Assembly: GCA_964292295.1 (NCBI GenBank)
Contig: CAXYVC010000048.1
Coordinates: 1 to 18,174, forward strand
From: an uncultured bacterium
GTDB taxonomy: Bacteria; Acidobacteriota; Holophagae; Holophagales; Holophagaceae
Reading direction: 5' to 3'
DNA length: 18,174 bases
Shown in pieces: positions 3,337 to 16,157 of this stretch. A program made the position numbers and the translations under genes. Position 1 is the stretch's first letter. Each line of letters opens with the position of its first letter. Below the pieces are notes generated by a model. It had not been told where the DNA came from and ran no database searches. It worked only from the letters and a program-made list of their open reading frames with translations.

Positions 3337-4047
3337 ATGCCCCGCTCCCGCGTTCCCTCCGCCCCTGCGCGCCCCGGCCCCCGGCCGGGCGCCGGGGCCT
3401 GCGGCACTCGCGTTCGGTGTCCGGAGGGGCCTCGGCGCACCCCCCGCCAGGCCCGCTCCCGGGAGACGGTGGAGGCCATCCTGGATGCGGCGGCGTTCCT
3501 GCTGGAGACGGAGGGCTTCCGGGCCGCCTCCACGAATGCGATCGCCCGCCGTGCGGGGGTTTCCATCGGTTCCCTCTACCAGTTCTTCGCCTCCCGGGAA
3601 GAGGTCTTCCGCGCGCTCCTGGACCGGCATGGGGCGGAGGTGCGGGCGTGCGTGGCGCGGGTCCTGGCCTCGCCCTCGGGGGGGGAGGAACCCCCTGCGC
3701 GCATCCTCGCCCGGCTGCTCCGGGAGCTGGTGCGCATGCACCGGGGAAGGCCCGTCCTGGCGCACGCCATGGCCACCCAGCTGGCCCACCTGGCGACGGA
3801 GGCGGCGCGCCGGGAGGAGGGCGCCTGCATGGATGCGCTGGCGGCGCGGGTGGCCGCGGGGCTGGCGGTCCCCCACGTCGCCGCCCGGGCCTGGATGGCC
3901 GTGGAGCTTACAGCCGCCATGGCCCACCGCCTGGCCCACGATCCGCCCTCCGCCATCCCGGAGGGGGAACTCCTGGGTGCCTTCGAGGGGCTTCTGGCGG
4001 GGCTTCTGGGGGCAGGGGCGCCCGGCGGGCATGATGGAGACCTATGA
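3337..4047 (+). CDS. TetR/AcrR-family transcriptional regulator
   Basis: TetR N-terminal HTH: ...RETVEAILDAAAFLLETEGFRAASTNAIARRAGVSIGSLYQFFASREEVF.... The start is uncertain. ATG 3337 has no SD and gives a 40-aa Pro/Arg-rich leader. The ORF opens at 3247, but the 3247/3301 ATGs would place the palindrome inside coding sequence. Stop TGA 4045-4047 overlaps the next ATG (ATGA). Confidence 0.7.
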   Translation: MPRSRVPSAPARPGPRPGAGACGTRVRCPEGPRRTPRQARSRETVEAILDAAAFLLETEGFRAASTNAIARRAGVSIGSLYQFFASREEVFRALLDRHGAEVRACVARVLASPSGGEEPPARILARLLRELVRMHRGRPVLAHAMATQLAHLATEAARREEGACMDALAARVAAGLAVPHVAARAWMAVELTAAMAHRLAHDPPSAIPEGELLGAFEGLLAGLLGAGAPGGHDGDL

Positions 4048-5033
4048 CCGACTGCCTTCCGTCCTTTTCCATCGGCCCCGTGGTGGTGGATCCGCCGCTG
4101 GTGCTGGCGCCCCTGCACGAGATCACCGATGCGCCCTTCCGCCGCATGGTGCGCGAGGTGGGGGGCGTCGGGCTCACGGTGTCCGAGATGATCAGCTGCG
4201 AGGCGCTCATCCGGAATGCCCGCAAGGCCGAGGCCATGATGGCGGGGGACGGCGGGCGCCCCTTCGCCATGCAGGTGGTGGGCTCGGTGCCCACGCACTT
4301 GGCGGAGGCCGCGGTGCGCTGCGAAGCGGCCGGCGCCGATCTGGTGGACCTGAACATGGGCTGCCCGGCGAGCAACGTCACCCGGGGCGGCGCGGGCTCG
4401 GCCTTGATGCGGGACCTCCGCCACGCGGAGGCCTGCGTGGCGGCCGTCGTGCGGGCGGTGAAGGTGCCCGTGACGGTGAAGATGCGCGCCGGGTGGGACG
4501 CGGCCCAGAAGGAGCGGGGGGACTTCCTGGACTTCCTGCGCATGTTCGAGGCCAACGGCGTGCAGGCCCTCACCCTGCACCCGCGCACCCGCGCCCAGCA
4601 GTATTCGGGGGAGGCGGACTGGAGCCTCATCGCCCGGGCGGTGGAACTGGGGCCCGCCTATCCCGTGATCGGCAACGGCGACGTGGTGGAGGCGGAGGAC
4701 GCCCGGCGCATGCTGCGGGAGACGGGCTGCCGCGGCGTGATGGTGGGGCGCGGCGCGCTCTTCAATCCCTTCCTCTTCCGGCAGATCCTGGAGCCGGAGC
4801 TCACGGTGACGCCCGGCATGCGGGTGGACCTGCTGCTGCGCCTGCTGGAGCGCCTCCAGGTCGAGCTGGAGCCGCGGGAGGCCCTGCACAAGGTGAAGAA
4901 GCTGGGGGGCTGGATCACCAAGGGCATCCCCGGGGGCAGCACCTTCCGCCACCAGCTCCACGAGAAGAACGACCCGGAGGCGCTGATGGCCGACCTGCTG
5001 GCCCTGCGGGCGCGGCTGGAGGGCGCTCTGTAA
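4044..5033 (+). CDS. tRNA-dihydrouridine synthase (Dus family, DusB-like)
   Basis: 329 aa with Dus/TIM-barrel flavoenzyme motifs: LAPLHEITDAPFRRM, DLVDLNMGCPASNVTRGGAGSALMRD (catalytic Cys region) and VPVTVKMRAGWD. SD GGAG lies 5 nt upstream. The 4-nt ATGA overlap with the TetR gene suggests translational coupling. Confidence 0.8.
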   Translation: MTDCLPSFSIGPVVVDPPLVLAPLHEITDAPFRRMVREVGGVGLTVSEMISCEALIRNARKAEAMMAGDGGRPFAMQVVGSVPTHLAEAAVRCEAAGADLVDLNMGCPASNVTRGGAGSALMRDLRHAEACVAAVVRAVKVPVTVKMRAGWDAAQKERGDFLDFLRMFEANGVQALTLHPRTRAQQYSGEADWSLIARAVELGPAYPVIGNGDVVEAEDARRMLRETGCRGVMVGRGALFNPFLFRQILEPELTVTPGMRVDLLLRLLERLQVELEPREALHKVKKLGGWITKGIPGGSTFRHQLHEKNDPEALMADLLALRARLEGAL

Positions 5034-5080
5034 CCTTTGGGCGGGGACTCCGGTAATCCTGATGTGAGGAGCCTCAAGTC

Positions 5081-5623
5081 TTGGACAGCGCCGATGACAC
5101 GCAGCTGATGGCCCGCGTCCGCGTGGGCGACGGGGAGGCCCTGGCCCTGCTCTTCGAGCGCCATCAGGGGCCTCTGGTGGGCTTCCTGCACCGGATGACT
5201 GGTTCCGCCGGACTGGCGGAGGATCTGGCCCAGGAGAGCTTCCTGCGGGTGCTCCGCTATGCCCGCAGTTTCAAGCCGGAGGCGCCCTTCCGGCCCTGGC
5301 TGTACCGCATCGCCCGCAACGTCCTGGCGGACCACCGGAGTCCCCTTGACCTGCCGCTGGAGCCCCACGCCGCTTCGGTGCCCGCCGCGGGGCCCTGCCC
5401 CCATGCCGTGCTGGAAGCCACGGAGCGCCGGCAGCGCCTGGCCGAGGCTCTGGAGCGCCTGCCCGAGGACAAGCGGGAGCTGCTGCTGCTCTCCCGGAAC
5501 CTGGGCTACGAGGCCCTGGCGGAGAACTTCGGGTGCAGCGCGGGCGCCCTGAAGGTGCGGGTGCACCGGGCGCTCCAGGAGCTGCGGGCCCTTTTCTTTG
5601 AAGGCCAGGAGGTGCGGCCATGA
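5081..5623 (+). CDS. ECF (extracytoplasmic function) sigma-70 family RNA polymerase sigma factor
   Basis: Region 2 (LAEDLAQESFLRVLRYARSFKPEAPFRPWLYRIARNVLADH) and region 4 (LERLPEDKRELLLLSRNLGYEALAENFGCSAGALKVRVHRAL) signatures. TTG start at 5081 lies 11 nt after GAGGAG; an alternative ATG is at 5108. Stop TGA 5621-5623 overlaps the next ATG. Confidence 0.8.
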   Translation: MDSADDTQLMARVRVGDGEALALLFERHQGPLVGFLHRMTGSAGLAEDLAQESFLRVLRYARSFKPEAPFRPWLYRIARNVLADHRSPLDLPLEPHAASVPAAGPCPHAVLEATERRQRLAEALERLPEDKRELLLLSRNLGYEALAENFGCSAGALKVRVHRALQELRALFFEGQEVRP

Positions 5624-6327
5624 CGATGGAACCGGGGCCCTGCGAGGCCTTCCTCGAGGCGCTGGCGAGGGGCCAGGAACCGACCCCGGAGGCGCGGTCC
5701 CATGCGGAGGCCTGCCCCGCCTGCCGGGAGCTGCGCGACCTGTGGGAAGACCTGGGCGTCCTGGCCGACGCGGGCCCGGATTCTGGCCGCGTCGCGCGCT
5801 TCCGGGAACGCCTGGCGCGGGAGGGGCGGCTGCACCCCCCACGGCGCCTGCTGCGCCTCCTGCTGCCCCTGGCGGCGGCGCTCCTGCTGGTGGCCGGAGG
5901 CGCCTTCGCCGGCGGCTGGCTGCTGCGGGGCCCCGCGGGCCGGGATTCCGAGCTGGCCCTGCTGCGGCGGGGGGCAAGCGGCGCGCGGGTGCAGGCCATC
6001 GCCCTGCTGGGGGCCGGGCGGCAGGGTGGCCCTGACCTGGAGGCGGCGCTGCTGGAGCGGGTCCGGCGGGACGAGGCCACGGAGGTGCGCCTGGCGGCGG
6101 TGGAGGCGCTCTACCTCTGCGCGTCCGATCCCGGCCTTTCCGGCCGCCTGGAGTCGGTCCTGGCCGCCCAGGAACGTCCCGAGGTCCAGCTCGCCCTGGT
6201 GGACCTGATGGTGGCCCTGCGGGAGCGCCGGGCCGCGGAGGCCCTGCGCCGGGTGCTCGGCCGCGGCGGCCTGTCGCCCGAGGTGCGGGCGCGGGCGGAG
6301 CAGGGGCTGGCGGGCATTCCGCTGTAA
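5620..6327 (+). CDS. Anti-sigma factor: N-terminal zinc-finger (ZAS HxxxCxxC), single TM helix, C-terminal HEAT-repeat domain
   Basis: ATGA overlap with the sigma gene and a GGAGG SD 7 nt upstream. Motif SHAEACPACREL is the HxxxCxxC zinc anti-sigma signature. TM segment LLRLLLPLAAALLLVAGGAFAGGWLL. The C-terminus carries repeated E.VRLAAVEAL / RRAAEALRRVL HEAT/PBS-lyase-like repeats. Confidence 0.65.
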   Translation: MTMEPGPCEAFLEALARGQEPTPEARSHAEACPACRELRDLWEDLGVLADAGPDSGRVARFRERLAREGRLHPPRRLLRLLLPLAAALLLVAGGAFAGGWLLRGPAGRDSELALLRRGASGARVQAIALLGAGRQGGPDLEAALLERVRRDEATEVRLAAVEALYLCASDPGLSGRLESVLAAQERPEVQLALVDLMVALRERRAAEALRRVLGRGGLSPEVRARAEQGLAGIPL

Positions 6328-6387
6328 CGGTCCCGTCCGGAAGGGGTAGTCATGGATGCGGGGACATCCCGCATGGAGGGAAGTCCC

Positions 6388-7701
6388 ATGAACCGGAAGC
6401 TGAAGGTCGGTCTGGCGATCCTGGGCGGCGTGGCGGCCTTGCTGGTGGCGGCTCACCTCGTGGAGAACTTGCGGGGCAGGCACGCCTGGCGCAGCTGGAA
6501 GCGGGCCCGCCTGGCCGCCGGGGACCGCTTCGAACCGGCCGCCTTCGCCCCGCCCGCCCTGCCGGAGGCCGACAACTTCGCGGCCGCACCCCTGATCGCC
6601 GAGACCGTGCAGGGGCGGCGCCCCGGGCCCCAGGTCCCCTCCGCGCTCGGCGAACCCCGCCTGATGGGCAGCTGGCGCGAGGGACGAAGGTCCGACCTCG
6701 CGGCCCTGAAAGATACGCTGAAGGTGCAGGACCTGGACGCCTTCCTGGCGCCCTACGGGGTCGAGCTGGAGGCCCTGGCCGAGGCGGCTCGGCGCCCGGG
6801 CTGCCGCCTGCCCGTGGACTACGGCGCGCCCATGGCGGTTCCTCCCCAGTGGCTGGGCATGCGCGCCCGGGCGCGGCTCCTGGCCCTGCGGGCCCTCGTG
6901 CGCCTGGAGCAGGGGAAGTCGGAAGCCGCCCTGGAGGACGTGCTCACGGGCCTTCGCGTGGCTGGTCGCCTCCAGCGGGAGCCCCACCTCATCACCCAGC
7001 TCCTGCGCCTGGCCTGGGCGAACATCCTGTTGCAGCCCGTGTGGGAGGGGCTGGAGGCGCGGTGCTGGAGCGCCTCCCAGCTGGAGCGCCTCCAGGCGGC
7101 CCTGGAGAGGGTGGATCTCGTCGCCTCCTGGCGCCAGGCCGTCCTGTACGAAGGCTGCGGAAGCGTGTCCAGCTTCGAGGCGGTGGTCGAGAAGAACGCC
7201 ATCCTGCGGGGCTGGGCCTACCAGAACCTGGTGCGCATGGGCGGCTGGTGGTACCAGAACGCGGAGGTCATGGATTCGGTGCGGCACCGCTTCCGTCCCG
7301 AGGCCGAGGAACCCCTGAGGCGCATGCTCCTGGCCAGGAGGACGCCCTACACCTTCATGCTCGAATCCTTGCCCGCCATGTTGGGCCAGAACCAGCGCAT
7401 GGCCCGCACCCAGTCGGGGCTGGACCAGGCCCGCGTGGCCTGTGCCCTGGAGCGCTTCCGCCTGGCGAAGGGCTCCTATCCCGAGCGCCTGGAGGCGCTG
7501 GTACCGGGCTTCCTTCCCGAGGCGCCGGGCGACGTGATCGAGGGCCAGGCCCTTTGCTACACGCGCTTCCGTCCCGACGCCTTCCGGCTCTATTCCCCGG
7601 GGTGGAACCGCCAGGATGAGGGCGGGCGCTTGGTCCTTGAGGCGGGGGGCAGGAGCGATCCGGGCAGGGGCGACTGGCCCTGGACGGGGTCTCAGAGGTA
7701 G
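6388..7701 (+). CDS. Hypothetical signal-anchored (N-terminal TM) protein, likely exported domain; family not recognised
   Basis: MNRKLKVGLAILGGVAALLVAAHLV is a charged n-region followed by a hydrophobic helix. SD GGAGGG lies 8 nt upstream of ATG 6388. An alternative ATG at 6352 is also preceded by GGAAGGGG. It lies immediately downstream of the sigma/anti-sigma pair. Stop TAG 7699-7701 overlaps the 3' end of the convergent NlpC/P60 gene by 10 nt. Confidence 0.5.
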   Translation: MNRKLKVGLAILGGVAALLVAAHLVENLRGRHAWRSWKRARLAAGDRFEPAAFAPPALPEADNFAAAPLIAETVQGRRPGPQVPSALGEPRLMGSWREGRRSDLAALKDTLKVQDLDAFLAPYGVELEALAEAARRPGCRLPVDYGAPMAVPPQWLGMRARARLLALRALVRLEQGKSEAALEDVLTGLRVAGRLQREPHLITQLLRLAWANILLQPVWEGLEARCWSASQLERLQAALERVDLVASWRQAVLYEGCGSVSSFEAVVEKNAILRGWAYQNLVRMGGWWYQNAEVMDSVRHRFRPEAEEPLRRMLLARRTPYTFMLESLPAMLGQNQRMARTQSGLDQARVACALERFRLAKGSYPERLEALVPGFLPEAPGDVIEGQALCYTRFRPDAFRLYSPGWNRQDEGGRLVLEAGGRSDPGRGDWPWTGSQR

Positions 7702-8456
7702 CTGCGGGCGCCTAAGTACCGTTCCCGGAAGTAGGAGCTGTCCAGGGATTCCTCCCGGATGGTGCTGCCCTGGCGGGAGGCGTGCACGAAGCGGCCGCCT
7801 CCCGCGTAGAGGCCCACGTGGCTCACCTGGCCCTTGGCGCCGGTGGCGAAGAAGAGCAGGTCGCCCTTCTGGAGTCTGGCGCGCTCCACGGGGTGGCCCT
7901 GCTCCCACTGTTCCCGGGAGCTGCGGGGGATCCGGAGGCCGTCCAGGCGGTACACGGCCCAGACGAGGCCGCTGCAGTCGAAGCCGTCCCCGTTGGTGCC
8001 CCCCCACAGGTAGGGCACGCCCAGGAAGCTGCGGGCGCGCGCCACCAGGCGCTCCCGCAGCTCCGGGACCTTCCCGGGTTCGAGGGCGATGGGCTCGGGC
8101 GCCACGAGGTAGTAGACCTCCAGAACGCCTTCCCTCCGCAGGGCCTCGGCGCGGCGCCTGGCGGATTCCCGGTCCGGAAAGTCGCCGAAGCGCACCTTGT
8201 AGAGGCCGTCGGGCGCGGCGAAGTAGGTGGCGTCCAGGCCCAGATCCTGGAGGCGCGCGCTGAGGCGCGCGGCGTTCTCGACCCGGGCGAAGGCGCCGGC
8301 CTGGATCGTGGTGCCCAGGGCGCGGGCGGGGCGTTCCGAGGCCTGCGCGGGGACGGGGCGCCGCGGCGGGGCGGCGGGAGCGGGTCGCGGAGGCCGGCAG
8401 GCGGGGAGGGAGAGCAGCAGGCCCGCGACGAGGGCCAGGGCAACGCGCGGCCTCAC
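7692..8456 (-). CDS. NlpC/P60-family cell-wall peptidase lipoprotein with N-terminal SPOR domain
   Basis: GTG start at 8456 preceded by GAGGAGGG. Signal peptide plus a possible lipobox MRPRVALALVAGLLLSLPAC. SPOR-like segment IQAGAFARVENAARLSARLQ...YKVRFGDF. NlpC/P60 catalytic triad context GFDCSGLVWAVY (Cys), VSHVGLYAGGG (His), RFVHASRQG (His). The start overlaps the kinase stop (GTGA). The long track ORF 7692..9779 is the same frame read through without a stop; its upstream part is Arg/Pro-rich nonsense. Confidence 0.75.
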   Translation of the reverse strand: MRPRVALALVAGLLLSLPACRPPRPAPAAPPRRPVPAQASERPARALGTTIQAGAFARVENAARLSARLQDLGLDATYFAAPDGLYKVRFGDFPDRESARRRAEALRREGVLEVYYLVAPEPIALEPGKVPELRERLVARARSFLGVPYLWGGTNGDGFDCSGLVWAVYRLDGLRIPRSSREQWEQGHPVERARLQKGDLLFFATGAKGQVSHVGLYAGGGRFVHASRQGSTIREESLDSSYFRERYLGARSYL

Positions 8457-9751
8457 GCGCCCTCCTCGGGCAGGGGCTGGGGCAGCTCGAAGGTGAACTC
8501 GGCCCACTCCCCTGGGCGGGAACGGGCATCCATGCGGCCCCCGTGGAGGAGCACGATGCGCCAGGAGGTGTAGAGGCCCACGCCCGTGCCCTTGATCCGG
8601 GCCAGCTCGGGGCTCTGCAGGCGGCTGAACTTGCGGAAGAGGCGGCCGCGCTGCTCGGGGGGGAAGCCGGGGCCCTCGTTCCAGACCGCCACGCGGACGA
8701 GGTTCGGCTCGTGCCCATAGTGGAGGCGGATCAGCCCGCCCTCGCGGCCGTACTTCACGGCGTTGCCCAGCAGGTTCACCGTCACGATCTTCAGCAGGGC
8801 GGGATCGCAGCGGAGCGCTTCCGGCCGCTCCGGGTAGTGGCGCTCCACGCGCATGCCCCGCTCGGCGATCTGGGGCTGCACCAGCTCCAGGGCGGGCTCG
8901 AGCACCTCCTCCACGAGCATGGACTCCGTGGCCGCGAGGCGCAGCCTTCCGCCCTCCATGCGGGCGAGGTCGAGGTACTCGCGCACCAGGTCCAGCAGGT
9001 AGCTGCCCTTCTGGATGAGGCGCTCCAGCTTCTGCACGTGGCGCGGGTCCAGCTCCCCCAGGTAGCCGCCCGTGAGCACCCGCGCGTCGGTGATCATGCT
9101 GGCGATGGGGTTCTTCAGCTCGTGGCTCACGAAGGCGAGCATCTCGTTGTAGGCCTGGTTGGCGGCAGTGAGCTGCTCGATGCGCCAGACCTTCTCGACC
9201 GCCTGGCTCAGGCGCTCGGCCAGGGCGCGCCACAGGCGGACGTGGTAGGGCGTGTAGACCCGTTCGTCCCGCGAGCTGAGGAAGAGCAGGCCATAGGGGC
9301 GCTGCTCCACCATGAGGGGGCAGGCCATGCTGGAGCGCACGCCCTCCCGCACCAGCAGGCGGGTGGAGGCGCTGCGGGGGTGCTCCGCCTCGTAGCGCGC
9401 CAGGTCGTAGATGATGCGGCTGCAGCCGCTGGCGAGCACCGTCTGCAGGGAGCTGCCCGCGAGGTCCTCCGCGTAGCCGTCCTTCAGCAGCACTTCCGGG
9501 TACAGGGCCCGGGTGCGCCGGGAGACCACGCGCCGCCCGTTCTCCTCCACGAAGGCCAGGCCGATGCGGTCGCAGGGGTAGAGCGCCCGCAGGTTGCCGA
9601 AGAGCCAGTCCAGCAGCTCGTCCAGGGACTCCTTGGCGCTGACCTTGCGGTTCACCGTGTCGAGGATCTCCTGCTCCTCCGCCGGGAAGACCTCTTCCTC
9701 GGCGCCTTCGAAGGTGCTCAGGAAATGGAGGTTGGCGTGGAGGTCGACCAT
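8453..9751 (-). CDS. Soluble sensor histidine kinase with N-terminal GAF domain (GAF-HisKA-HATPase_c), no TM segments
   Basis: 432 aa from ATG 9751. H-box FVSHELKNPIASM, N-box NLLGNAVKYG, G1 VWNEGPGF, G2 GTGVGLY. The N-terminal 170 aa is GAF-like (…LYPCDRIGLAFVEENGRR…MACPLMVEQRPYGLLFLSS…). The SD is weak. The 8453..11548 track ORF is this frame extended upstream without a stop. Confidence 0.8.
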   Translation of the reverse strand: MVDLHANLHFLSTFEGAEEEVFPAEEQEILDTVNRKVSAKESLDELLDWLFGNLRALYPCDRIGLAFVEENGRRVVSRRTRALYPEVLLKDGYAEDLAGSSLQTVLASGCSRIIYDLARYEAEHPRSASTRLLVREGVRSSMACPLMVEQRPYGLLFLSSRDERVYTPYHVRLWRALAERLSQAVEKVWRIEQLTAANQAYNEMLAFVSHELKNPIASMITDARVLTGGYLGELDPRHVQKLERLIQKGSYLLDLVREYLDLARMEGGRLRLAATESMLVEEVLEPALELVQPQIAERGMRVERHYPERPEALRCDPALLKIVTVNLLGNAVKYGREGGLIRLHYGHEPNLVRVAVWNEGPGFPPEQRGRLFRKFSRLQSPELARIKGTGVGLYTSWRIVLLHGGRMDARSRPGEWAEFTFELPQPLPEEGA

Positions 9752-9775
9752 GGCGGGGTCCGCACGGCCATTCTC

Positions 9776-9800
9776 CCACGGGCCGGCGGGAGCCGGCCCG
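9776..9800 (-). other. Very stable GC hairpin (9-bp stem CGGGCCGGC/GCCGGCCCG, 4-nt loop) in the 65-nt hydA-kinase intercistronic gap; no U-tract
   Basis: Plus strand reads cgggccggc-ggga-gccggcccg. It lies 17-41 nt past the hydA stop codon (TAG, minus strand) and is followed on the minus strand by gugggagaauggccgug rather than a U-run. Confidence 0.4.
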
Positions 9801-9816
9801 CAGGAAAGGCCAGGGT

Positions 9817-11742
9817 CTACTCGATGTATTTCCCCCGGGGCGTGTAGTGCGTGTGCAGCAGGGCGTGGCTCTTCGCGCCGCAGGGGCCCTCGGTCAGGAA
9901 GTCCTCGTACAGCTTCAGCAGGGCGGGATTCTCGTGGGACTTCCGCACCGCGTACGCACGGTCCTCCTCGTAGATGGCGCGGGCGCGCGCCTCCCGGATG
10001 GCGGGGCTGGTGGGGATCGGCTGCCCGCCGCCGCCGATGCAGCCGCCGGGGCAGCCCATGAACTCGATGAAGTGGCACTTGGAGAGCTCGCCACCGCGTC
10101 GGATGTCCTCCATCACCTTCTTGGCGTTGGCGGTGCCGTGGGCCACCGCCACCTTCAGGGTGTGCCCCTTCAGGAAGCGCCAGTGGGGGAAGAGGTGCGC
10201 CAGCATGGGGGGCACCTCTCCCACCTCCTGGATGGGGAGCTCCAGGTAGCGCACGCCATCGAATCCGCGCAGGGGCTTGATTTCCGCGTGCTCGAAGAGG
10301 TTCTCCACCTTCACGCCGCACACCAGCTCCACGACCGTGCGCAGGGCCGCCTCCATCACGCCGCCGGTGGCGCCGAAGATCACGCCCGACCCCGTGGCCG
10401 TTCCGAAGGGGGCGTCGAAGTCGCTCTTCGGAAGCATCGGGAGCTCCAGGCCGGCCTCGCTGATCATCTTCGCCAGTTCCCGGGTGGTGAGGCCGTAGTC
10501 CACGTCCTTGAAGCCGCTGGCGGCCATCTCGGAGCGGTTGCACTCGAACTTCTTGGCCGAGCAGGGCATGAGGGCCACCGTCACGATGTCCTTCGGGTCG
10601 ATCCCGTGCTTCTCGGCGTAGTACGTCTTGATCACCGCGCCGAACATCTGCTGGGGGCTCTTGGCGGTGCTCAGGTTCGGGATGTATTCGGGGTAGAAGT
10701 GCTCCAGGTATTTCACCCACCCCGGCGAGCAGGAGGTGAACTGGGGGAAGGCGGCGCCGGGCTCCCGCAGCAGCAGCGCCTTCTTGAGGCGCAGCAGCAG
10801 TTCGGTGCCCTCCTCCAGGATCGTGAGGTCCGCCGAGAAGTTGGTGTCGAAGACCCGGTCGAAGCCGCACATGCGCAGCGCCGTGTTCAGCTCGAAGGTG
10901 AGGGCTCGGCCCGGCGCGAGGCCGAAGCATTCGCCGATGGCGGCCCGCGGGCTGGGGGCGGTCTGGATCACCACGTGCTTGGCGGGGTCGTCGATGGCGG
11001 CCCACACCTCGTCCGTGGGGTCGTTGGCGCGCAGGGCGCCCGTGGGGCAGCGGTTGATGCACTGCCCGCAGTTGATGCACACCACGCTGCCCAGGGGCTT
11101 CTCCAGGAAGGTGCCGATGTGGCTCCTGGCGCCCCGCTCGATCACCTCGATGGTGCCGACCTCCTGGAGGTCGATGCAGGTGCGCACGCAGCGGCGGCAG
11201 AGGATGCACTTGTTGTTGTCCCGCACCACGCTGGTGCTGGATGCGTCGATCTCGTGGACGGGCTGGCTCTGGTGGCCGAAGCGGAAGAAGTCGACGCCGT
11301 ATTCCCTGGCGAGGGACTGGAGCTCGCAGGTGCCGTTGCGCCCGCAGGCGTAGCAGTCGCCCACGTGCTCGGAGAGGAGCAGGTCCAGGATGTGGCGCCG
11401 CGCCCGGCGCACCCGTTCGGTGTGCGTGCGCACCTTGATGGGGGCGGTGACGGGGTAGGCGCAGGCGGCCTGGAGGGTGCGCTGGCCCTCGATCTCCACG
11501 GAGCAGATGCGGCAGACGCCCGCCACGCAAAGGTCCGGGTGGTGGCATAGGGTGGGGATCCGCACGCCCACGCGGGCGGCGGCCTCCAGGATGGTGGTGC
11601 CCAAGGGCACCTTCACCTCCGTCCCGTTGATGGAGATGCCCACCTGGCCGCCGATGGCCTGGGGGCGGTCGGGCGGCGGCACCACCTGGGCCTGCTGGCT
11701 GGCGGGGGCGCGGCGGGATGCAGTCGTGGTCTGGTCGGACAT
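9817..11742 (-). CDS. hydA: [FeFe]-hydrogenase catalytic subunit HydA (M3-type: 2Fe-2S, His-ligated 4Fe-4S, 2x 4Fe-4S ferredoxin-like, H-cluster domain)
   Basis: 641 aa from ATG 11742, with GGAG 6 nt upstream. 2Fe-2S motif CHHPDLCVAGVCRIC. His-ligated cluster motif HVGDCYACGRNGTC. Ferredoxin-like motifs CILCRRCVRTC and CINCGQCINRCP. H-cluster motifs L1 FTSCSPGW (variant), L2 MPCSAKKFE, L3 EFMGCPGGCIGGGGQP. Confidence 0.9.
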   Translation of the reverse strand: MSDQTTTASRRAPASQQAQVVPPPDRPQAIGGQVGISINGTEVKVPLGTTILEAAARVGVRIPTLCHHPDLCVAGVCRICSVEIEGQRTLQAACAYPVTAPIKVRTHTERVRRARRHILDLLLSEHVGDCYACGRNGTCELQSLAREYGVDFFRFGHQSQPVHEIDASSTSVVRDNNKCILCRRCVRTCIDLQEVGTIEVIERGARSHIGTFLEKPLGSVVCINCGQCINRCPTGALRANDPTDEVWAAIDDPAKHVVIQTAPSPRAAIGECFGLAPGRALTFELNTALRMCGFDRVFDTNFSADLTILEEGTELLLRLKKALLLREPGAAFPQFTSCSPGWVKYLEHFYPEYIPNLSTAKSPQQMFGAVIKTYYAEKHGIDPKDIVTVALMPCSAKKFECNRSEMAASGFKDVDYGLTTRELAKMISEAGLELPMLPKSDFDAPFGTATGSGVIFGATGGVMEAALRTVVELVCGVKVENLFEHAEIKPLRGFDGVRYLELPIQEVGEVPPMLAHLFPHWRFLKGHTLKVAVAHGTANAKKVMEDIRRGGELSKCHFIEFMGCPGGCIGGGGQPIPTSPAIREARARAIYEEDRAYAVRKSHENPALLKLYEDFLTEGPCGAKSHALLHTHYTPRGKYIE

Positions 11743-11762
11743 GGTCGACTCCGATGCGCGCG

Positions 11763-12938
11763 TCAGGCGTGGGTGAACTGGCGGCCCATGATCTCGTCGC
11801 GGAAGTGCTTCACGACGGAGAGGAAGGCGTTGGGGCTGCTCTGGCCGAGCCCGCACTTGGAGGCGATCTGCATGGTCTCCCCCAGGGCGCACAGCTCGTT
11901 CAGGTGGGCCATGGAACAGGTGCCCTCCTGGAGGCGCCGCACGCCCTCCAGGAGCTTCGGGTTGCCGCAGCGGCAGGGGGTGCACTGGCCGCAGCTCTCG
12001 TCCACGAAGAAGGCGAGGAAGTTCTCCAGCACCCGCAGCATGTCGCGCTGGGGCCCGAAGACGATCACGCTGCCGCCGGTGGGGATGTCCTCGAAGGCCA
12101 GGGTGCGCCCGAATTCCGCGGCGGGAACGCACTGCCCCGAGGCGCCGCCGATCTGGACGGCCTTGGCCCCCGTGCCGCCCACCTGCGCGAGCAGTTCGTG
12201 GACGGTGATGCCCAGGGGGAGCTCGTAGACGCCGGGGCGCTCGCAGTCGCCGGAGACGCTGAAGAGCTTCGGGCCCGTGCTCTTCTCGGTGCCCTTGGAG
12301 CGGAACCAGGCCGCGCCCTTGGCCAGGATGCAGGCGGCCGAGGCGAGGGTCTCCACGTTGTTCACCACCGTGGGGTGCCCCAGGAAGCCGGTGTTCACGG
12401 GGAAGGGGGGCCGGTTGCGCGGTTCGCCCCGGAAGCCCTCCAGGCACTCGATGAGGGCGGTCTCCTCGCCGCAGATGTAGGCGCCGGCGCCCGTGAAGAC
12501 CCGGATGTCGAAGTCCAGGTCGCTGCCCAGGATCTCGCGCCCCAGCAGCTTCTGCTCCCGGCGGCGCGCCAGCACTTCCAGGAGGTGGGGCTTCAGGTAG
12601 GTGTACTCGCCGCGCAGGAAGAGGATGCCCTCCTTGGCGCCGATGGCCCTTCCCGCGAGGGTCATGCCCTCGAAGACGAGGTCCGCGTGCTCCTGGAGGA
12701 TCACCCGGTCCTTGAAGGTGCCGGGCTCACCCTCGTCGGCGTTGCAGACCACGAACTTGCGGCTGGACTTGGCGGCCGCCGCGAAGTTCCACTTCACGCC
12801 CGTGGGGAAGCCCGCGCCGCCGCGGCCCTTGAGGCCGGAGGCGCCGATCTCGGCGATGATGTCGGGGCGGGGCAGGGACAGGGCCCTGCGCAGGCCCTCT
12901 TCCGGAACCATGGAGGCAAAGGTCGGGACGGGGCTCAT
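11763..12938 (-). CDS. hydB: NADH-binding flavoprotein subunit HydB (NuoF/51-kDa-like), compact form
   Basis: 391 aa from ATG 12938, with AGGAGG 10 nt upstream. NuoF motifs GASGLKGRGGAGFPTGVKW (FMN/NADH site) and ESCGQCTPCRCG...KCGLGQ (N3 4Fe-4S). There are no additional CxxCxxCxxxCP ferredoxin motifs and no N-terminal thioredoxin-like 2Fe-2S domain. ATGA overlap with hydC. Confidence 0.85.
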   Translation of the reverse strand: MSPVPTFASMVPEEGLRRALSLPRPDIIAEIGASGLKGRGGAGFPTGVKWNFAAAAKSSRKFVVCNADEGEPGTFKDRVILQEHADLVFEGMTLAGRAIGAKEGILFLRGEYTYLKPHLLEVLARRREQKLLGREILGSDLDFDIRVFTGAGAYICGEETALIECLEGFRGEPRNRPPFPVNTGFLGHPTVVNNVETLASAACILAKGAAWFRSKGTEKSTGPKLFSVSGDCERPGVYELPLGITVHELLAQVGGTGAKAVQIGGASGQCVPAAEFGRTLAFEDIPTGGSVIVFGPQRDMLRVLENFLAFFVDESCGQCTPCRCGNPKLLEGVRRLQEGTCSMAHLNELCALGETMQIASKCGLGQSSPNAFLSVVKHFRDEIMGRQFTHA

Positions 12939-13456
12939 GCGAGGTGGACCTCCTTCCTCTCGGTGGCGTGGACGCCGAAGACCTTGCGGCAGTCCTCGAG
13001 GATCGCGTGCACCTGTTCCGGCGTGACGCGGGTGAAGACCCGCTCGTTCACCAGGAGCGCCGGCCCCTGGTCGCACATGCCCATGCAGTTCGCCCACTCC
13101 AGGGTGAACTTGCCGTCCTTCGTGGTCTCGCCGAAGGCGATGCCCAGGTCGTTCTCCAGCTGGCGGGCCCCGCGGTCCTTCCCCTGCATGTCGCAGGAGA
13201 TGGTGCGGCAGAGGCGGATCACGAAGCGGCCCTGGGCGCGCTCCCCCAGGAATGCATAGAAGGAGGCGACGCTGTGCACCTCCACGGGGTGGATGCCCAG
13301 CTCGTCGGCCACCACCTGGAGGGCGTAGGCGTCGAGCCGGTGGTACGTGCGCTTCACCTCCTGGAGGATGGTCAGCAGGGCGCTGCGGTCGCAGCCGAAG
13401 CGCTCGGCCAGCGCCTTGACCTCCCGAACCAGGCGTTCCCGTTCGGTCATCAGCAT
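12935..13456 (-). CDS. hydC: Thioredoxin-like [2Fe-2S] subunit HydC (NuoE/24-kDa-like)
   Basis: 173 aa from ATG 13456, with GGGAGG 7 nt upstream. NuoE Cys pattern RLCRTISC...WANCMGMCDQGPAL (Cx4C...Cx3C). Stop TGA overlaps the hydB ATG. Confidence 0.85.
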   Translation of the reverse strand: MLMTERERLVREVKALAERFGCDRSALLTILQEVKRTYHRLDAYALQVVADELGIHPVEVHSVASFYAFLGERAQGRFVIRLCRTISCDMQGKDRGARQLENDLGIAFGETTKDGKFTLEWANCMGMCDQGPALLVNERVFTRVTPEQVHAILEDCRKVFGVHATERKEVHLA

Positions 13457-13458
13457 GG

Positions 13459-13839
13459 CTAGGCCTCCCGGCGCGCCAGCAGGCGCGCCACCTTCGCCAC
13501 GAGCACGTCGGGCTCCACGGGCTTGGGCACGAAATCGTCCACGGGCACCATCTCGTCGTCCGGGCCGAAGGCGAGGCCTGAGGCGGTGGCGACGCTGGTG
13601 AGCATGAGGATCGGCAGTTTCAGGCCCTTCCGGCGCAGCTCCTGGGCCATGGTGAAGCCGTCGTCCGGCTGCTCCATCATCACGTCCAGGATCAGCAGGT
13701 CCGGCTGGAAGCGCTCCACCATCCGGAGGCCTTCCTGGCGGCTTCCCGCGGAGGCCACCTCGTGGCCCTCCTTCTGGAGGAAGAGCTGGCTGGCTTCCAC
13801 GATGTCGGGGTCGTCGTCGACGATGAGGACCTTGGCCAT
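13459..13839 (-). CDS. Stand-alone response-regulator receiver domain protein (CheY-like, no output domain)
   Basis: 126 aa from ATG 13839, with GGAG 6 nt upstream. MAKVLIVDDDPDIVEA (acid pocket), DLLILDVMMEQPDDGF (phospho-acceptor Asp), LMLTS (Thr), FVPKPV (Lys). The stop lies 2 nt before the hydC ATG. The track ORF extends it to 14109, but that N-terminus is low-complexity. Confidence 0.8.
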   Translation of the reverse strand: MAKVLIVDDDPDIVEASQLFLQKEGHEVASAGSRQEGLRMVERFQPDLLILDVMMEQPDDGFTMAQELRRKGLKLPILMLTSVATASGLAFGPDDEMVPVDDFVPKPVEPDVLVAKVARLLARREA

Positions 13840-14120
13840 GCGGGGCTCCTGTTCCCGGCGCCTTCCGCCGGTGCGGCCAGGGAGCGGAAGGGTTTCCTCC
13901 GCGCCTGGATGGGGGGGTGGAACGGGGGTTTCCAAGGGGCTGTCTTGAGGGGGATGGCCCGCATGGTAGCCATGGCCTGGGAAGGGGTCCAGGAAGAAGT
14001 GCGGTTGCGCGCGGGAAGCCTCCTTTCCGGCGCGCCCGGGGCCCCGCTGGGCGGCCTGGGGCCGCGCGCTGCGGTCCGTTGGGCAGAATCCAGGCCTCAC
14101 GTGTTCCAAGGAGAGACGCC

Positions 14121-16157
14121 ATGAACCCCGACGAACCCTCCGCGAGCGCCCTGCTGGGCGTGGCCGGCTGCATCCTGGGAGGCCTCGCCCTCCTGGTGCT
14201 CTTCCTGAAGACCTTCCGCTACATCCCCAACACGCGGGTGGGCATCGTGGAGCGCCTCTGGAGCCCCAAGGGGTCCGTGACGAAGGGGCTCATCGCCCTC
14301 ACGGGCGAGGCGGGCTTCCAGCCGAACGTTCTGCGCGGCGGATGGCACCTTTTCATGCCCTTCGTGTACCGCATCCACCGCATGCCCCTGGTCACCATCC
14401 CCCAGGGCAAGATCGGCTACCTCTTTGCCCGGGACGGCGTGGACCTCTCCGCCACCCAGGCGCTGGCCTGCAACGAGACCGCGCGCGACTTCCAGGATGT
14501 GGAGGCCTTCCTGCGCGCAGGCGGCCAGAAGGGCCCCCAGCGCATGATCCTGCGCGAGGGAACGTACGCCATCAATCTGGCGCAGTTCGTGGTGATCACC
14601 GAGGACCAGATCTACTACCTGCCCCTGGACCGCAGCGAGGTGGAGACCTTCACGAAGATGAGCGCGGTCATCGCCGAGCGCGGCGGCTACCGCCCCGTGA
14701 TCATCAAGGGCACCGACGACTCCGTGGGCATCGTCACCGTGCACGACGGCCCGAGCCTGGCCAGCGGCGAGATCATCGCGCCGACGGTGGGCGAGGACCC
14801 GGCCCAGGCGGCCACGTACCACAACAACTTCCAGGACGCCGACAAGTTCCTGAAGGCCGGCGGCCAGCGCGGGCGCCAGTACCAGGTGCTGGTGGAAGGC
14901 ACCTATTACATCAACCGCCTCTTCGCCACGGTGGAGCTGATCCCCAAGACCGTGGTGGAGGTGGGCACCGTGGGCGTCGTGGTGAGCTACACGGGCCAGA
15001 CGGGCGCCGACATCAGCGGCCAGGAATACCGCCACGGCGAACTCGTGGCCAAGGGCACGCGCGGCGTGTGGAGCGAGCCGCTGCTGCCGGGCAAGTACGC
15101 CTTCAACACCTACGCGGGCAAGGTGCTGATGGTCCCCACGACCAACTTCATCCTGAAGTGGAACAAGACCGAGGTGGGCAGCCACAAGTTCGACGAGAAC
15201 CTGGCGGAGGTCAGCCTCATCACGAAGGACGCCTTCGAGCCCAGCCTGCCCCTCTCGGTGGTGGTGCACATCGACTACCGCAAGGCGCCCCTCGTCATCC
15301 AGCGCTTCGGCGACATCAAGAAGCTGGTGGAGCAGACCCTCGACCCCATGGTCAGCGCCTACTTCAAGAACATCGGCCAGACCCGCACCCTCATCCAGCT
15401 CATCCAGGACCGCAGCGCGATCCAGGAGCAGTCGGGCGTCCAGATGAAGGAGAAGTTCGCCCAGTACAACCTGGAGCTGCAGGAGGTGCTGATCGGCACG
15501 CCCAGCAGCGGCGCCCAGGGCGGCCAGATCGAGCAGATCCTCACCCAGTTGCGCAGCCGCCAGATCGCCGACGAGCAGGTGGAGACCTACGCCCGCCAGC
15601 AGAACGCGGCGGCCAAGGAGCGGGAGCTGCGCGAGGCCGAGGCCAAGGCCAAGCAGCAGACGGCGCTCACCGAGTCTGCCATCGGCATCGAGGTTCAGAG
15701 CAACCAGGGCAAGGCTGACTACGCCCGGGCCCAGCAGCAGGCGGCCCAGATCCAGACCCTCGCGGGCGCCGAGGCCGAGAAGCTGCGCCTCATGGGCGAG
15801 GGCGAGGCCAAGCGCATCAAGGTCATGGCCGAGGCCCAGGCGGAACAGGCGGCCCGGGTGGGCGTGGCCCAGGCGCTGGCCATCGAGGAGCAGGTGAAGG
15901 CCTACGGCGGCCCCCAGTTCCAGCTGGTGCAGCAGGTCATGAGCCGCTTTGCCGAGGCCATCGAGAAGAGCCAGGTGGACGTGGTGCCCAAGATCCAGAT
16001 GGCCGGCGGCCAGGGCGGCGGCAGCCTGATCGAGAGCCTGCTGGGCCTGATGCTCAGCGAGAAGGCGGGCCAGCTCGCGGGCGTGGCCCCGGCGACCGTC
16101 CACCCCGAGGCCGAGGCCCTGAAGGCCCAGCTGCGGGATGTGATGAAGAAGGGCTGA
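14121..16157 (+). CDS. Flotillin-like SPFH/band-7 membrane protein (FloT/YqiK family) with internal duplication
   Basis: 678 aa. SD AAGGAGA lies 6 nt upstream of ATG 14121. N-terminal TM helix LLGVAGCILGGLALLVLFL. SPFH core (...PLSVVVHIDYRKAPLVIQRFGDIKKLVEQTLDPMVSAYFKN...). C-terminal EA-rich flotillin coiled-coil (AKERELREAEAKAKQQ...AEAEKLRLMGEGEAKRIKVMAEAQAEQAA). Confidence 0.85.
   Translation: MNPDEPSASALLGVAGCILGGLALLVLFLKTFRYIPNTRVGIVERLWSPKGSVTKGLIALTGEAGFQPNVLRGGWHLFMPFVYRIHRMPLVTIPQGKIGYLFARDGVDLSATQALACNETARDFQDVEAFLRAGGQKGPQRMILREGTYAINLAQFVVITEDQIYYLPLDRSEVETFTKMSAVIAERGGYRPVIIKGTDDSVGIVTVHDGPSLASGEIIAPTVGEDPAQAATYHNNFQDADKFLKAGGQRGRQYQVLVEGTYYINRLFATVELIPKTVVEVGTVGVVVSYTGQTGADISGQEYRHGELVAKGTRGVWSEPLLPGKYAFNTYAGKVLMVPTTNFILKWNKTEVGSHKFDENLAEVSLITKDAFEPSLPLSVVVHIDYRKAPLVIQRFGDIKKLVEQTLDPMVSAYFKNIGQTRTLIQLIQDRSAIQEQSGVQMKEKFAQYNLELQEVLIGTPSSGAQGGQIEQILTQLRSRQIADEQVETYARQQNAAAKERELREAEAKAKQQTALTESAIGIEVQSNQGKADYARAQQQAAQIQTLAGAEAEKLRLMGEGEAKRIKVMAEAQAEQAARVGVAQALAIEEQVKAYGGPQFQLVQQVMSRFAEAIEKSQVDVVPKIQMAGGQGGGSLIESLLGLMLSEKAGQLAGVAPATVHPEAEALKAQLRDVMKKG

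Follow-up and report, generated by a model that had tools for sequence, protein, structure and literature searches.

A stand-alone receiver gene precedes hydCBA of a short-HydB [FeFe] hydrogenase in Holophagaceae and other phyla: a candidate for phosphorylation-dependent control of the enzyme

In an uncultured member of the Holophagaceae (Acidobacteriota; assembly GCA_964292295.1, contig CAXYVC010000048.1) a response regulator receiver (REC) without any output domain is encoded as first cistron of the hydCBA genes for an [FeFe] hydrogenase, and the locus raises the question of what such a receiver acts on. The DNA analysed is the stretch of 18,174 nucleotides from position 1 of this contig, referred to as the window, and all positions are those of the window unless a related locus is named (Table 1). 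An earlier reading made from the sequence alone, without database searches (the sequence-only reading), had described six minus-strand genes as a hydrogenase operon embedded in its own two-component system, with a soluble GAF histidine kinase and an NlpC/P60-SPOR hydrolase as distal cistrons, and had suggested control at the protein level. In the present analysis the receiver gene and hydCBA were found to be a conserved unit to which histidine kinases are linked in most loci; a direct, phosphorylation-dependent action of the receiver on the hydrogenase is the reading which suits this unit best, and we hold it tentatively.

A scan for HydA in one genome per GTDB species gave 80 loci, which were then searched by tblastn with the six proteins of the window; they are cited here by L numbers. 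The best HydA matches, with 82% identity, are in metagenome-assembled genomes (MAGs) of Holophagaceae and Holophaga. Fifty-one loci combine a HydA identity of at least 64% with enough upstream DNA, and in 44 of them the receiver gene lies directly upstream of hydC, showing that the REC-hydCBA order pointed out by the sequence-only reading is shared by relatives. In 43 of these loci the spacing of receiver gene and hydC lies between -35 and +24 nt, and the junctions of the core are, as read from the sequence, translationally coupled. The 44 loci belong to Acidobacteriota, Planctomycetota (Phycisphaerae), Myxococcota, Hydrogenedentota, Actinomycetota (Thermoleophilia), Bacteroidota/Ignavibacteria, Sumerlaeota, Neomarinimicrobiota, Riflebacteria and unclassified MAGs, at least ten phyla overall, and in the accessible text of PMC11406978 Holophaga foetida is a further carrier of the module. 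HydA is 65-82% identical across distant phyla while the contexts of the module are unrelated, and since the flanking genes differ among phyla the REC-hydCBA unit appears to be horizontally mobile. This receiver is missing from the bifurcating clusters of the Clostridia type, whose identity is about 50%.

The search was also performed from the side of the receiver, by scanning metagenomes for its motifs. Hydrogenase genes were found within 4 kb in 17 of the 80 loci obtained, and hydC was directly downstream in six of the eleven receivers with an identity of at least 46%. It would be possible to regard receiver and kinase as unrelated neighbours whose adjacency has no function, as two-component genes are common in bacterial genomes, but nothing else speaks for this, and a REC-hydC order which is kept in 44 of 51 loci with differing flanks and is recovered by the receiver-side search leaves it a next to negligible probability.

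Three further loci of the Holophagae illustrate how the unit is embedded. A 3.4-Mb contig (L081) carries REC-hydCBA and the GAF kinase gene followed by a convergent dus gene. In Geothrix sp. 21YS21S-2 (L085, 1-5656) the same series is directly preceded by two genes, one TM1266-like and one of the radical-SAM/BATS type (HydG/HydE-like); the same stretch has a Rex-like gene (Put_DNA-bind_N and CoA_binding domains) adjoining a gene for another NuoE and one for a fusion of the NuoF-GltD type. In Mesoterricola sediminis (L084) four genes on the opposite strand separate hydA from the gene of the GAF kinase (6054-9932); among those inserted are genes for a hybrid kinase (HAMP-PAS-HATPase-REC) and for a binding protein of the NMT1 type, and a DDE transposase is present upstream of the receiver gene.

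The receiver itself has a Pfam content of Response_reg alone (E 4e-22), and its orthologue-level matches in an HMMER search of 1.84 billion representatives are all stand-alone proteins of 101-194 amino acids (aa), the sole match of 194 aa being a frameshifted read; the lack of an output domain was thus correctly recognised from the sequence. That receiver or kinase might be frame artefacts is contradicted by their third-position G+C (GC3) frames, by the Pfam matches and by the conserved orthologues. The 120 closest clusters are of 122-136 aa and have generic names throughout, and the public annotations are no more specific, 'response regulator' for example, or the mistaken 'DNA-binding response OmpR family regulator'. 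Nearest in sequence and in structure are receivers of the OmpR/PhoB type, with 35-37% identity. The phospho-acceptor set is present (D8, D9, D52, T81 and K106-P107). In alignments of 44 and of 24 orthologues D8, D52, K106 and P107 are invariant and D9 nearly so, T81 is mostly kept with Ser or Asn in some, and the family shares the motifs ILDVMMexPDDG and vPVDxFxeKP. As the acidic pocket, D52, T/S81 and K106 are kept in 44 orthologues, the receiver is taken to be phosphorylatable and has the makings of a protein built for phosphorylation.

The AlphaFold2 model of the receiver has a predicted local distance difference test (pLDDT) score of 88 and shows no helix alpha4 between beta4 and beta5, with a pLDDT below 50 for residues 84-95; the alignment used for it was shallow (24 sequences, 65-82% identity). 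Across the family the beta4-beta5 segment (residues 82-101) is variable in sequence and constant in length. This unusual model without alpha4, together with the position as first and translationally coupled cistron, would suit a structural pseudo-receiver subunit, that is a flavodoxin-fold adaptor which is never phosphorylated. For such a protein, however, the conservation of D8, D9, D52, T/S81 and K106 in at least ten phyla would not be expected, and kinases are linked in 31 of the 44 loci; we consider a pseudo-receiver very improbable.

A paralogue of the receiver with 35-40% identity, likewise stand-alone and with a beta4-beta5 segment that is longer still, is encoded immediately 3' of the hydA gene in another HydABC cluster, distinct from the first, of Thermoleophilia and metagenome contigs (L016, L017, L021, L036 and L058, at about 3840-4250; L104, L115, L127 and L156). 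Stand-alone receivers seem in view of this second association to be recurrent companions of multimeric [FeFe] hydrogenases.

In an unbiased clustering of the neighbouring open reading frames (ORFs), histidine kinases were the sole widely recurrent family, present in 31 of the 44 loci. In 13 loci of six phyla the gene next after hydA, in the same orientation, encodes a full-length GAF kinase orthologue with 45-66% identity; in two further loci an orthologue is upstream on the opposite strand and in one it is about 7.5 kb off. The orthologues beside hydA, with 45-71% identity, are from Holophagae, Myxococcota, Hydrogenedentota, Sumerlaeota, Thermoleophilia and Neomarinimicrobiota. In Ignavibacteria/Bacteroidota the position after hydA is taken by a kinase with an N-terminus of several transmembrane segments and HisKA-HATPase_c domains. 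From these gene contents the type of linked kinase is interchangeable across lineages; the co-occurrence of REC, hydCBA and GAF kinase genes, which the sequence-only reading had named as a point to check, stands for the 13 loci but the GAF kinase is not a fixed partner. REC-hydCBA is kept without any kinase match in about 6-10 kb on each side in L003, L011, L020 and L039, and because of this persistence the receiver is more tightly tied to hydCBA than the kinase is.

A third type of kinase linked to the unit is related to sensory hydrogenases. Of the 44 loci with the receiver, 13 have a HydS-like sensor gene within 10 kb, and no locus without the receiver has one; in L013, L014, L016, L017, L021, L036, L058 and others a sensor of the Fe_hyd_lg_C type is fused or adjacent to HisKA-HATPase_c directly upstream of REC-hydCBA. 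In L013 and L014 (Holophagales), in Thermoleophilia and elsewhere a Fer4-Fe_hyd_lg_C-FeS-HisKA-HATPase_c fusion is followed by a REC-HisKA-HATPase_c hybrid, both directly ahead of the receiver (4326-6473 and 6477-7637 in L014; 4268-6323 and 6326-7579 in L021), an arrangement which, from the domains, looks like a two-tier kinase cascade. The sensor gene of L021 appears to be frameshifted. The window has no sensory hydrogenase, its single Fe_hyd_lg_C gene being that of the catalytic HydA.

Seven loci contain HydG and HydF according to the same clustering. It brought out no recurrent candidate partner in the 44 neighbourhoods, be it a DNA-binding regulator, an Hpt protein or another. This bears on the reading of the receiver as a phosphorelay intermediate or connector to an unlinked effector (Hpt plus DNA-binding regulator, sigma/anti-sigma factor or protease adaptor), with transcription or stability of the hydrogenase as output, in the manner of Spo0F, CpdR and SdrG. 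Single-domain receivers usually do act as relay intermediates or connectors, and the known H2-responsive systems such as HoxJ/HoxA act on transcription; the intact phospho-site, the several kinases converging on the locus and the failure to find fusions of receiver and hydrogenase subunits agree with a relay as well. That none of its presumed partners recurs, that the module moves among distant phyla as a unit, and that the receiver gene is apart from the kinase genes and coupled to hydC, which is unusual for a component needed in catalytic amounts, all speak against it. A relay function is the main rival of direct control and in our view somewhat unlikely.

The GAF kinase of the window is composed of GAF, HisKA and HATPase_c domains (Pfam) and is soluble, with a maximum 19-residue Kyte-Doolittle score of 0.92 and no hydrophobic or transmembrane segment; the sequence-only reading, which had named a cytoplasmic GAF domain as its only sensory module, agrees with both analyses. 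Its H box (SHELKNP, H210), N box (NLLGNAVKY) and G2 box (GTGVGL) are canonical. The G1 box is WNEGPGF, with Asn at residue 358, where KdpD has WDNGPG. All 16 GAF-kinase orthologues of related loci have N-x-G-[PR]-G in this box, with a variable second residue and with P in 15 and R in L017; the Asn-bearing orthologues are spread over six phyla (L001, L002, L004-L006, L013, L014, L017, L018, L021, L023, L024, L029 and L058). The membrane kinases found in the equivalent genomic position in Ignavibacteria retain D-x-G-x-G. In the Bergerat fold the Asp of the G1 box binds the amino group of adenine, and its replacement by Asn abolishes ATP binding in other GHKL proteins. The GAF kinase may be biased towards phosphatase activity, weak, or specific for another nucleotide.

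As to the signal, 20 residues of the GAF domain are invariant in 26 orthologues, including C144 and several polar residues. The AlphaFold2 model of this domain (pLDDT 90) has generic structural neighbours, namely bilin-binding, cAMP-binding, sigma-54 regulator and PtsP domains, and a ligand cannot be deduced from the structure since the model matches generic GAF folds alone.

The hydA and kinase genes are separated by a strong hairpin, as had been noticed in the sequence. It consists of a 16-bp G+C stem and four further pairs, with a minimum free energy of -50.8 kcal/mol (z = -4.5); none of 200 shuffled sequences folds as well. A strict terminator scan of the high-GC window gave no match. A strong hairpin directly after the hydA stop is present in most of the related loci that were folded; in low-GC relatives it has a stem and a U-run and resembles a canonical terminator, whereas the U-run is absent in high-GC genomes, and loci with a kinase gene behind the hairpin can have the U-run too (L025, L026, L030, L041 and L048). 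In the window about 15 nt lie between hairpin and kinase ATG. The hairpin of the window probably lowers kinase expression, either as a partial terminator or by stabilising the 3' end, and the kinase is most likely expressed via read-through, at a reduced level. As the hairpin after hydA recurs, U-run included, REC-hydCBA is seen as the conserved and highly expressed unit, with the kinase gene distal to it and, in the window genome, the lipoprotein gene coupled to the kinase presumably distal likewise. The description of the kinase as a cistron of the hydCBA operon is on this ground only partly retained: its gene is on the same strand and distal, but the conserved unit is REC-hydCBA and the hairpin precedes the kinase gene.

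Expression levels of this kind would also suit a receiver which serves as phosphate sink or as feedback modulator of the kinase (DivK/CheY2-like), its abundance reporting expression of the operon and the output regulator lying elsewhere. The receiver would exceed a kinase placed after the hairpin, the G1 box of the GAF kinase suggests a phosphatase bias, and loci with several kinases including REC-kinase hybrids do exist (L014, L021). On the other hand the receiver is kept in loci without a linked kinase, and a second regulator would be required, of which none is conserved nearby; a sink or feedback function is thus decidedly unlikely.

The enzyme encoded with the receiver could be assigned more precisely than as the generic [FeFe] hydCBA of the sequence-only reading, whose three subunits were confirmed. 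HydA has Fer2_4, NADH-G_4Fe-4S_3, Fer4, Fe_hyd_lg_C and Fe_hyd_SSU domains (Pfam) and scores 784.8 bits (cut-off 765) with NCBIfam NF040763, 'NADH-dependent [FeFe] hydrogenase, group A6'. All three H-cluster motifs are present: TSCSPGW, MPCSAKKFE and EFMGCPGGCIGGGGQP. In the L1 motif TSCSPGW (10720-10740, residues 336-342) Ser stands where the textbook form, TSCCPxW, has its second Cys, a variant shared by 72 of 73 related HydA sequences. HydA1 of Acetobacterium woodii is an active enzyme. It has TSCSPGW too and is the closest solved relative of HydA (7q4v, E 1e-172). HydC matches PF01257 (2Fe-2S_thioredx; E 5e-42).

The HydB subunit carries the distinction. Its domains are Complex1_51K, SLBB and NADH_4Fe-4S and nothing else, and its 391 aa align solely to the central NuoF core of the solved bifurcating HydB chains, which have 599-630 aa. 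The SLBB motif is GGASG at residue 264 and not GGPSG; GGASG occurs in 56 related HydB and GGPSG in 15 HydB of the Clostridia type. According to the available text of PMC7311640 bifurcating HydB have GGPSG and NADH-only enzymes do not. The subunits of Hyd1ABC of Syntrophomonas wolfei are reported as 63, 43.9 and 17.5 kDa by Losey et al., as far as that report was accessible, with a HydB lacking two Fe-S centres and an enzyme which uses NADH and no ferredoxin; the three subunits of the window are the same, their sizes match, and HydB is likewise short and without the extra Fe-S domains. A 2024 study of Hydrogenedentota names this clade 'sub-type II BfuABC', without clusters B3, B4 and B5 and predicted to be non-bifurcating, and in its accessible part lists Holophaga foetida among the relatives (PMC11406978). 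By its sequence, given the NF040763 score, the short HydB, the GGASG motif and the Hyd1ABC-like subunit sizes, the HydABC of the window is classified as a short-HydB, non-bifurcating, NADH-dependent [FeFe] hydrogenase of an already known kind; a bifurcating HydABC was considered and rejected on the architecture of HydB. In the window the operon for this enzyme has a receiver as first cistron, a feature not mentioned in the searchable texts on Hyd1ABC and sub-type II BfuABC.

In three loci hydC and hydB form one continuous ORF of 526-570 aa (L018, a Sumerlaeota MAG, 6282-7994; L044, a Thermoflexales MAG, 4005-5585; L047, Propionigenium maris, 1206-2909), resembling the HydB fusion of Syntrophus aciditrophicus.

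For such an enzyme we propose that the receiver would be made together with the subunits from a REC-hydC-hydB-hydA operon. HydABC is predicted to interconvert NADH + H+ and NAD+ + H2 near equilibrium, so that its direction would be set by H2 pressure and by the NADH/NAD+ ratio. The phosphorylation state of the receiver would be set by at least one linked sensor kinase, which in the window genome would be the soluble GAF kinase encoded past the hairpin 3' of hydA, and in other lineages a membrane kinase or the hydrogenase-like H2 sensor-kinase fusion with the REC-kinase hybrid. The receiver, either phosphorylated or not, would then bind HydABC and gate its activity or direction post-translationally without DNA binding. 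Direct binding to HydABC is favoured because a module that moves among phyla would be expected to bring its target along, unless the target is universal. We infer phosphotransfer from GAF kinase to receiver, a GAF ligand and contact between receiver and enzyme, and regard direct, phosphorylation-dependent control of HydABC as a possibility that is well worth pursuing without being assured. Our confidence in the parts list, that is in the genes, their conservation, the phospho-site, the kinase linkage and the want of a conserved DNA-binding partner, is much higher.

Several observations weigh against direct control and keep our support for it tentative. Seven of the 51 related loci have the enzyme and no receiver, and the hydrogenase consequently does not need the receiver. 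Sister receivers with 47-49% identity adjoin unrelated, non-hydrogenase genes, so that the link between receiver and hydrogenase is clade-wide and not absolute. No fusion of the receiver to a hydrogenase subunit or an output domain was found among the 150 best representatives of the HMMER search. The GAF kinase is possibly a poor one, and phosphotransfer from it is not assured, because Asn replaces the Asp of its G1 box. Finally, the model provisionally suggests a receiver without a recognisable helix alpha4, which may in part be a modelling limit of the shallow alignment. An apparent REC-HydC fusion in L002 was rejected, its translation containing a stop codon.

A more extended proposal would be a two-component pathway gating a soluble redox enzyme allosterically, with the receiver as phosphorylation-dependent regulatory subunit of the hydrogenase, which integrates H2, through the HydS-kinases, with a metabolite bound by the GAF domain, the GAF 'kinase' being mainly a ligand-gated phosphatase or using a nucleotide other than ATP. 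We regard this complete picture as doubtful.

It is of use to compare the locus with the known signalling systems linked to hydrogenases. In HoxBC-HoxJ-HoxA of Cupriavidus and HupUV-HupT-HupR of Rhodobacter a kinase and a response regulator are likewise dedicated to hydrogenase. HoxA and HupR are DNA-binding activators of the NtrC type whose genes accompany those of the sensors; the receiver of the window differs in lacking an output domain and in sharing an operon with the structural genes, and the sensor of the window is a GAF domain and not a hydrogenase. Among single-domain receivers CheY, DivK, Spo0F and CpdR are similar in being stand-alone with a complete phospho-acceptor site, and Sma0114/SdrG represent an alpha4-deficient group of single-domain receivers, which the predicted lack or disorder of alpha4 in the model would recall. 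The receiver of the window differs from the Sma0114/SdrG and CheY groups by being OmpR/PhoB-like, without PFxFATGY and inside the operon of a redox enzyme. HoxI is a regulatory-domain protein of the cyclic-nucleotide-binding type. It is neither a receiver nor served by a kinase, but as a small extra protein on a NuoEF-type NAD-linked hydrogenase it offers a precedent for a receiver as subunit. The accessible text of PMC3189943 describes the NAD+-reducing [NiFe] hydrogenase HoxHYFUI2 as carrying extra HoxI subunits.

Related to the present loci are also the putative sensory [FeFe] hydrogenases, namely the HydS/hfs systems and the histidine-kinase-linked HydDB 'group C1', described from genomes in PMC8924675, PMC6163223, PMC8542988 and PMC11406978, as far as their texts are accessible. 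Related loci carry a hydrogenase-like sensor-kinase upstream of REC-hydCBA, which the window lacks. The sequence-only reading had not recognised the arrangement as a described one, and no description of it was found in the searchable literature; as 13 of the 44 loci carry a HydS-like gene, the module is nevertheless closer to the HydS/group C1 idea than that reading had assumed. The term 'response regulator' does not occur in the searchable texts of the four papers on sensory and group C hydrogenases, and the searchable text of PMC7311640 and PMC11406978 does not mention a receiver or response regulator with the present enzyme. In the searchable literature on the non-bifurcating enzyme and reviews, 'response regulator' or 'receiver' was found only in one title of a reference list (PMC5626996 was searched by 'regulat' alone). 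Thus the enzyme is known and signalling genes near [FeFe] hydrogenases are known; the kinase-linked module with the receiver in first position is undescribed in the literature as far as it was searchable. Poudel et al. (BBA, 2016) reportedly found that purified HydABC is phosphorylated and that genes of regulators occur in the vicinity of hydA.

Since the reaction is near equilibrium, cells must decide when and in which direction the hydrogenase runs, and the searchable part of the literature gave no description of how NADH-dependent non-bifurcating [FeFe] hydrogenases are controlled. The dedicated receiver, conserved with the enzyme in at least ten phyla that include many lineages abundant in soil, sediment and wastewater, is a testable entry to this control, and it is also a candidate for the acceptor of the kinases of HydS/group C1 sensory hydrogenases. 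Should the receiver act directly on the enzyme, a soluble redox enzyme complex would be added to the targets of two-component signalling and a switch for engineered H2 production would be at hand. The cultured hosts Geothrix sp. and Mesoterricola spp. make experiments feasible.

Genes of the window were called by third-position G+C, using GC3 frame plots of the minus and the plus strand, because a G+C content of 66-79% yields long spurious ORFs throughout. The plot resolves 7692-13839 into six successive coding frames, all on the minus strand, and coordinates and sequence agree with the junctions given by the sequence-only reading (Table 1), as Pfam and NCBIfam profiles do with every one of its domain calls.

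Table 1. Positions of the receiver-hydrogenase locus, its kinase and adjoining features in the window.
Feature	Position	Strand	Remarks
Convergent flanking ORF	6352-7701	+	449 aa, no Pfam match
SPOR-NlpC/P60 lipoprotein gene	7692-8456	-	254 aa, GTG start
Soluble GAF-HisKA-HATPase_c histidine kinase	8453-9751	-	432 aa; GTGA overlap with NlpC/P60 gene
G+C-rich hairpin directly 3' of hydA stop	9766-9811	-	no U-run
hydA (catalytic [FeFe]-hydrogenase subunit)	9817-11742	-	641 aa, 70 kDa; 65-nt gap to kinase
hydB (NuoF-like FMN/NADH subunit, short form)	11763-12938	-	391 aa, 41.9 kDa; 20-nt gap to hydA
hydC (NuoE-like [2Fe-2S] subunit)	12935-13456	-	173 aa; ATGA overlap with hydB
REC (stand-alone receiver, first cistron)	13459-13839	-	126 aa, 13.9 kDa; stop 2 nt ahead of hydC ATG
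Upstream intergenic region, SPFH/Band-7 gene to receiver gene	13840-14120	-	presumed promoter and 5' untranslated region
Divergent SPFH/Band-7 gene	14121-16157	+	upstream flank of receiver gene

Scans of the high-GC window found no sigma-70 consensus, Rex box or Rfam family in the intergenic region upstream of the receiver gene, and the upstream regions of relatives share no motif except the ribosome-binding site. In the window such sites are AGGAG, 7 nt ahead of the receiver ATG, and GGGAGG ahead of the hydC ATG. No radical-SAM or other maturase family match was obtained among the window ORFs scanned, in line with the earlier remark that hydE/F/G are missing from it.

The NlpC/P60 protein, which had been counted as a distal member of the operon and of the system, has SPOR and NLPC_P60 domains (Pfam) and an N-terminal lipobox, LSLPAC. 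No homologue was found by tblastn in the 80 related genome loci, and the gene is absent after the kinase in the three further Holophagae loci L081, L084 and L085; it was rejected as a part of the module since it is not conserved. Its GTG start overlaps the kinase stop, with GGAGG upstream, a coupling specific to the window genome.

The other ORFs of the window have unrelated roles and encode a diacylglycerol kinase-like protein, an FAD oxidoreductase, a TetR regulator, Dus, an ECF sigma factor, a HEAT-repeat protein, a LysR regulator and a conserved hypothetical family 698 protein. On the plus strand the ECF sigma factor (5081-5623) is followed by the HEAT-repeat protein (5620-6327) and by the convergent ORF of 449 aa, whose end shares 10 nt with the 3' end of NlpC/P60 on the opposite strand.

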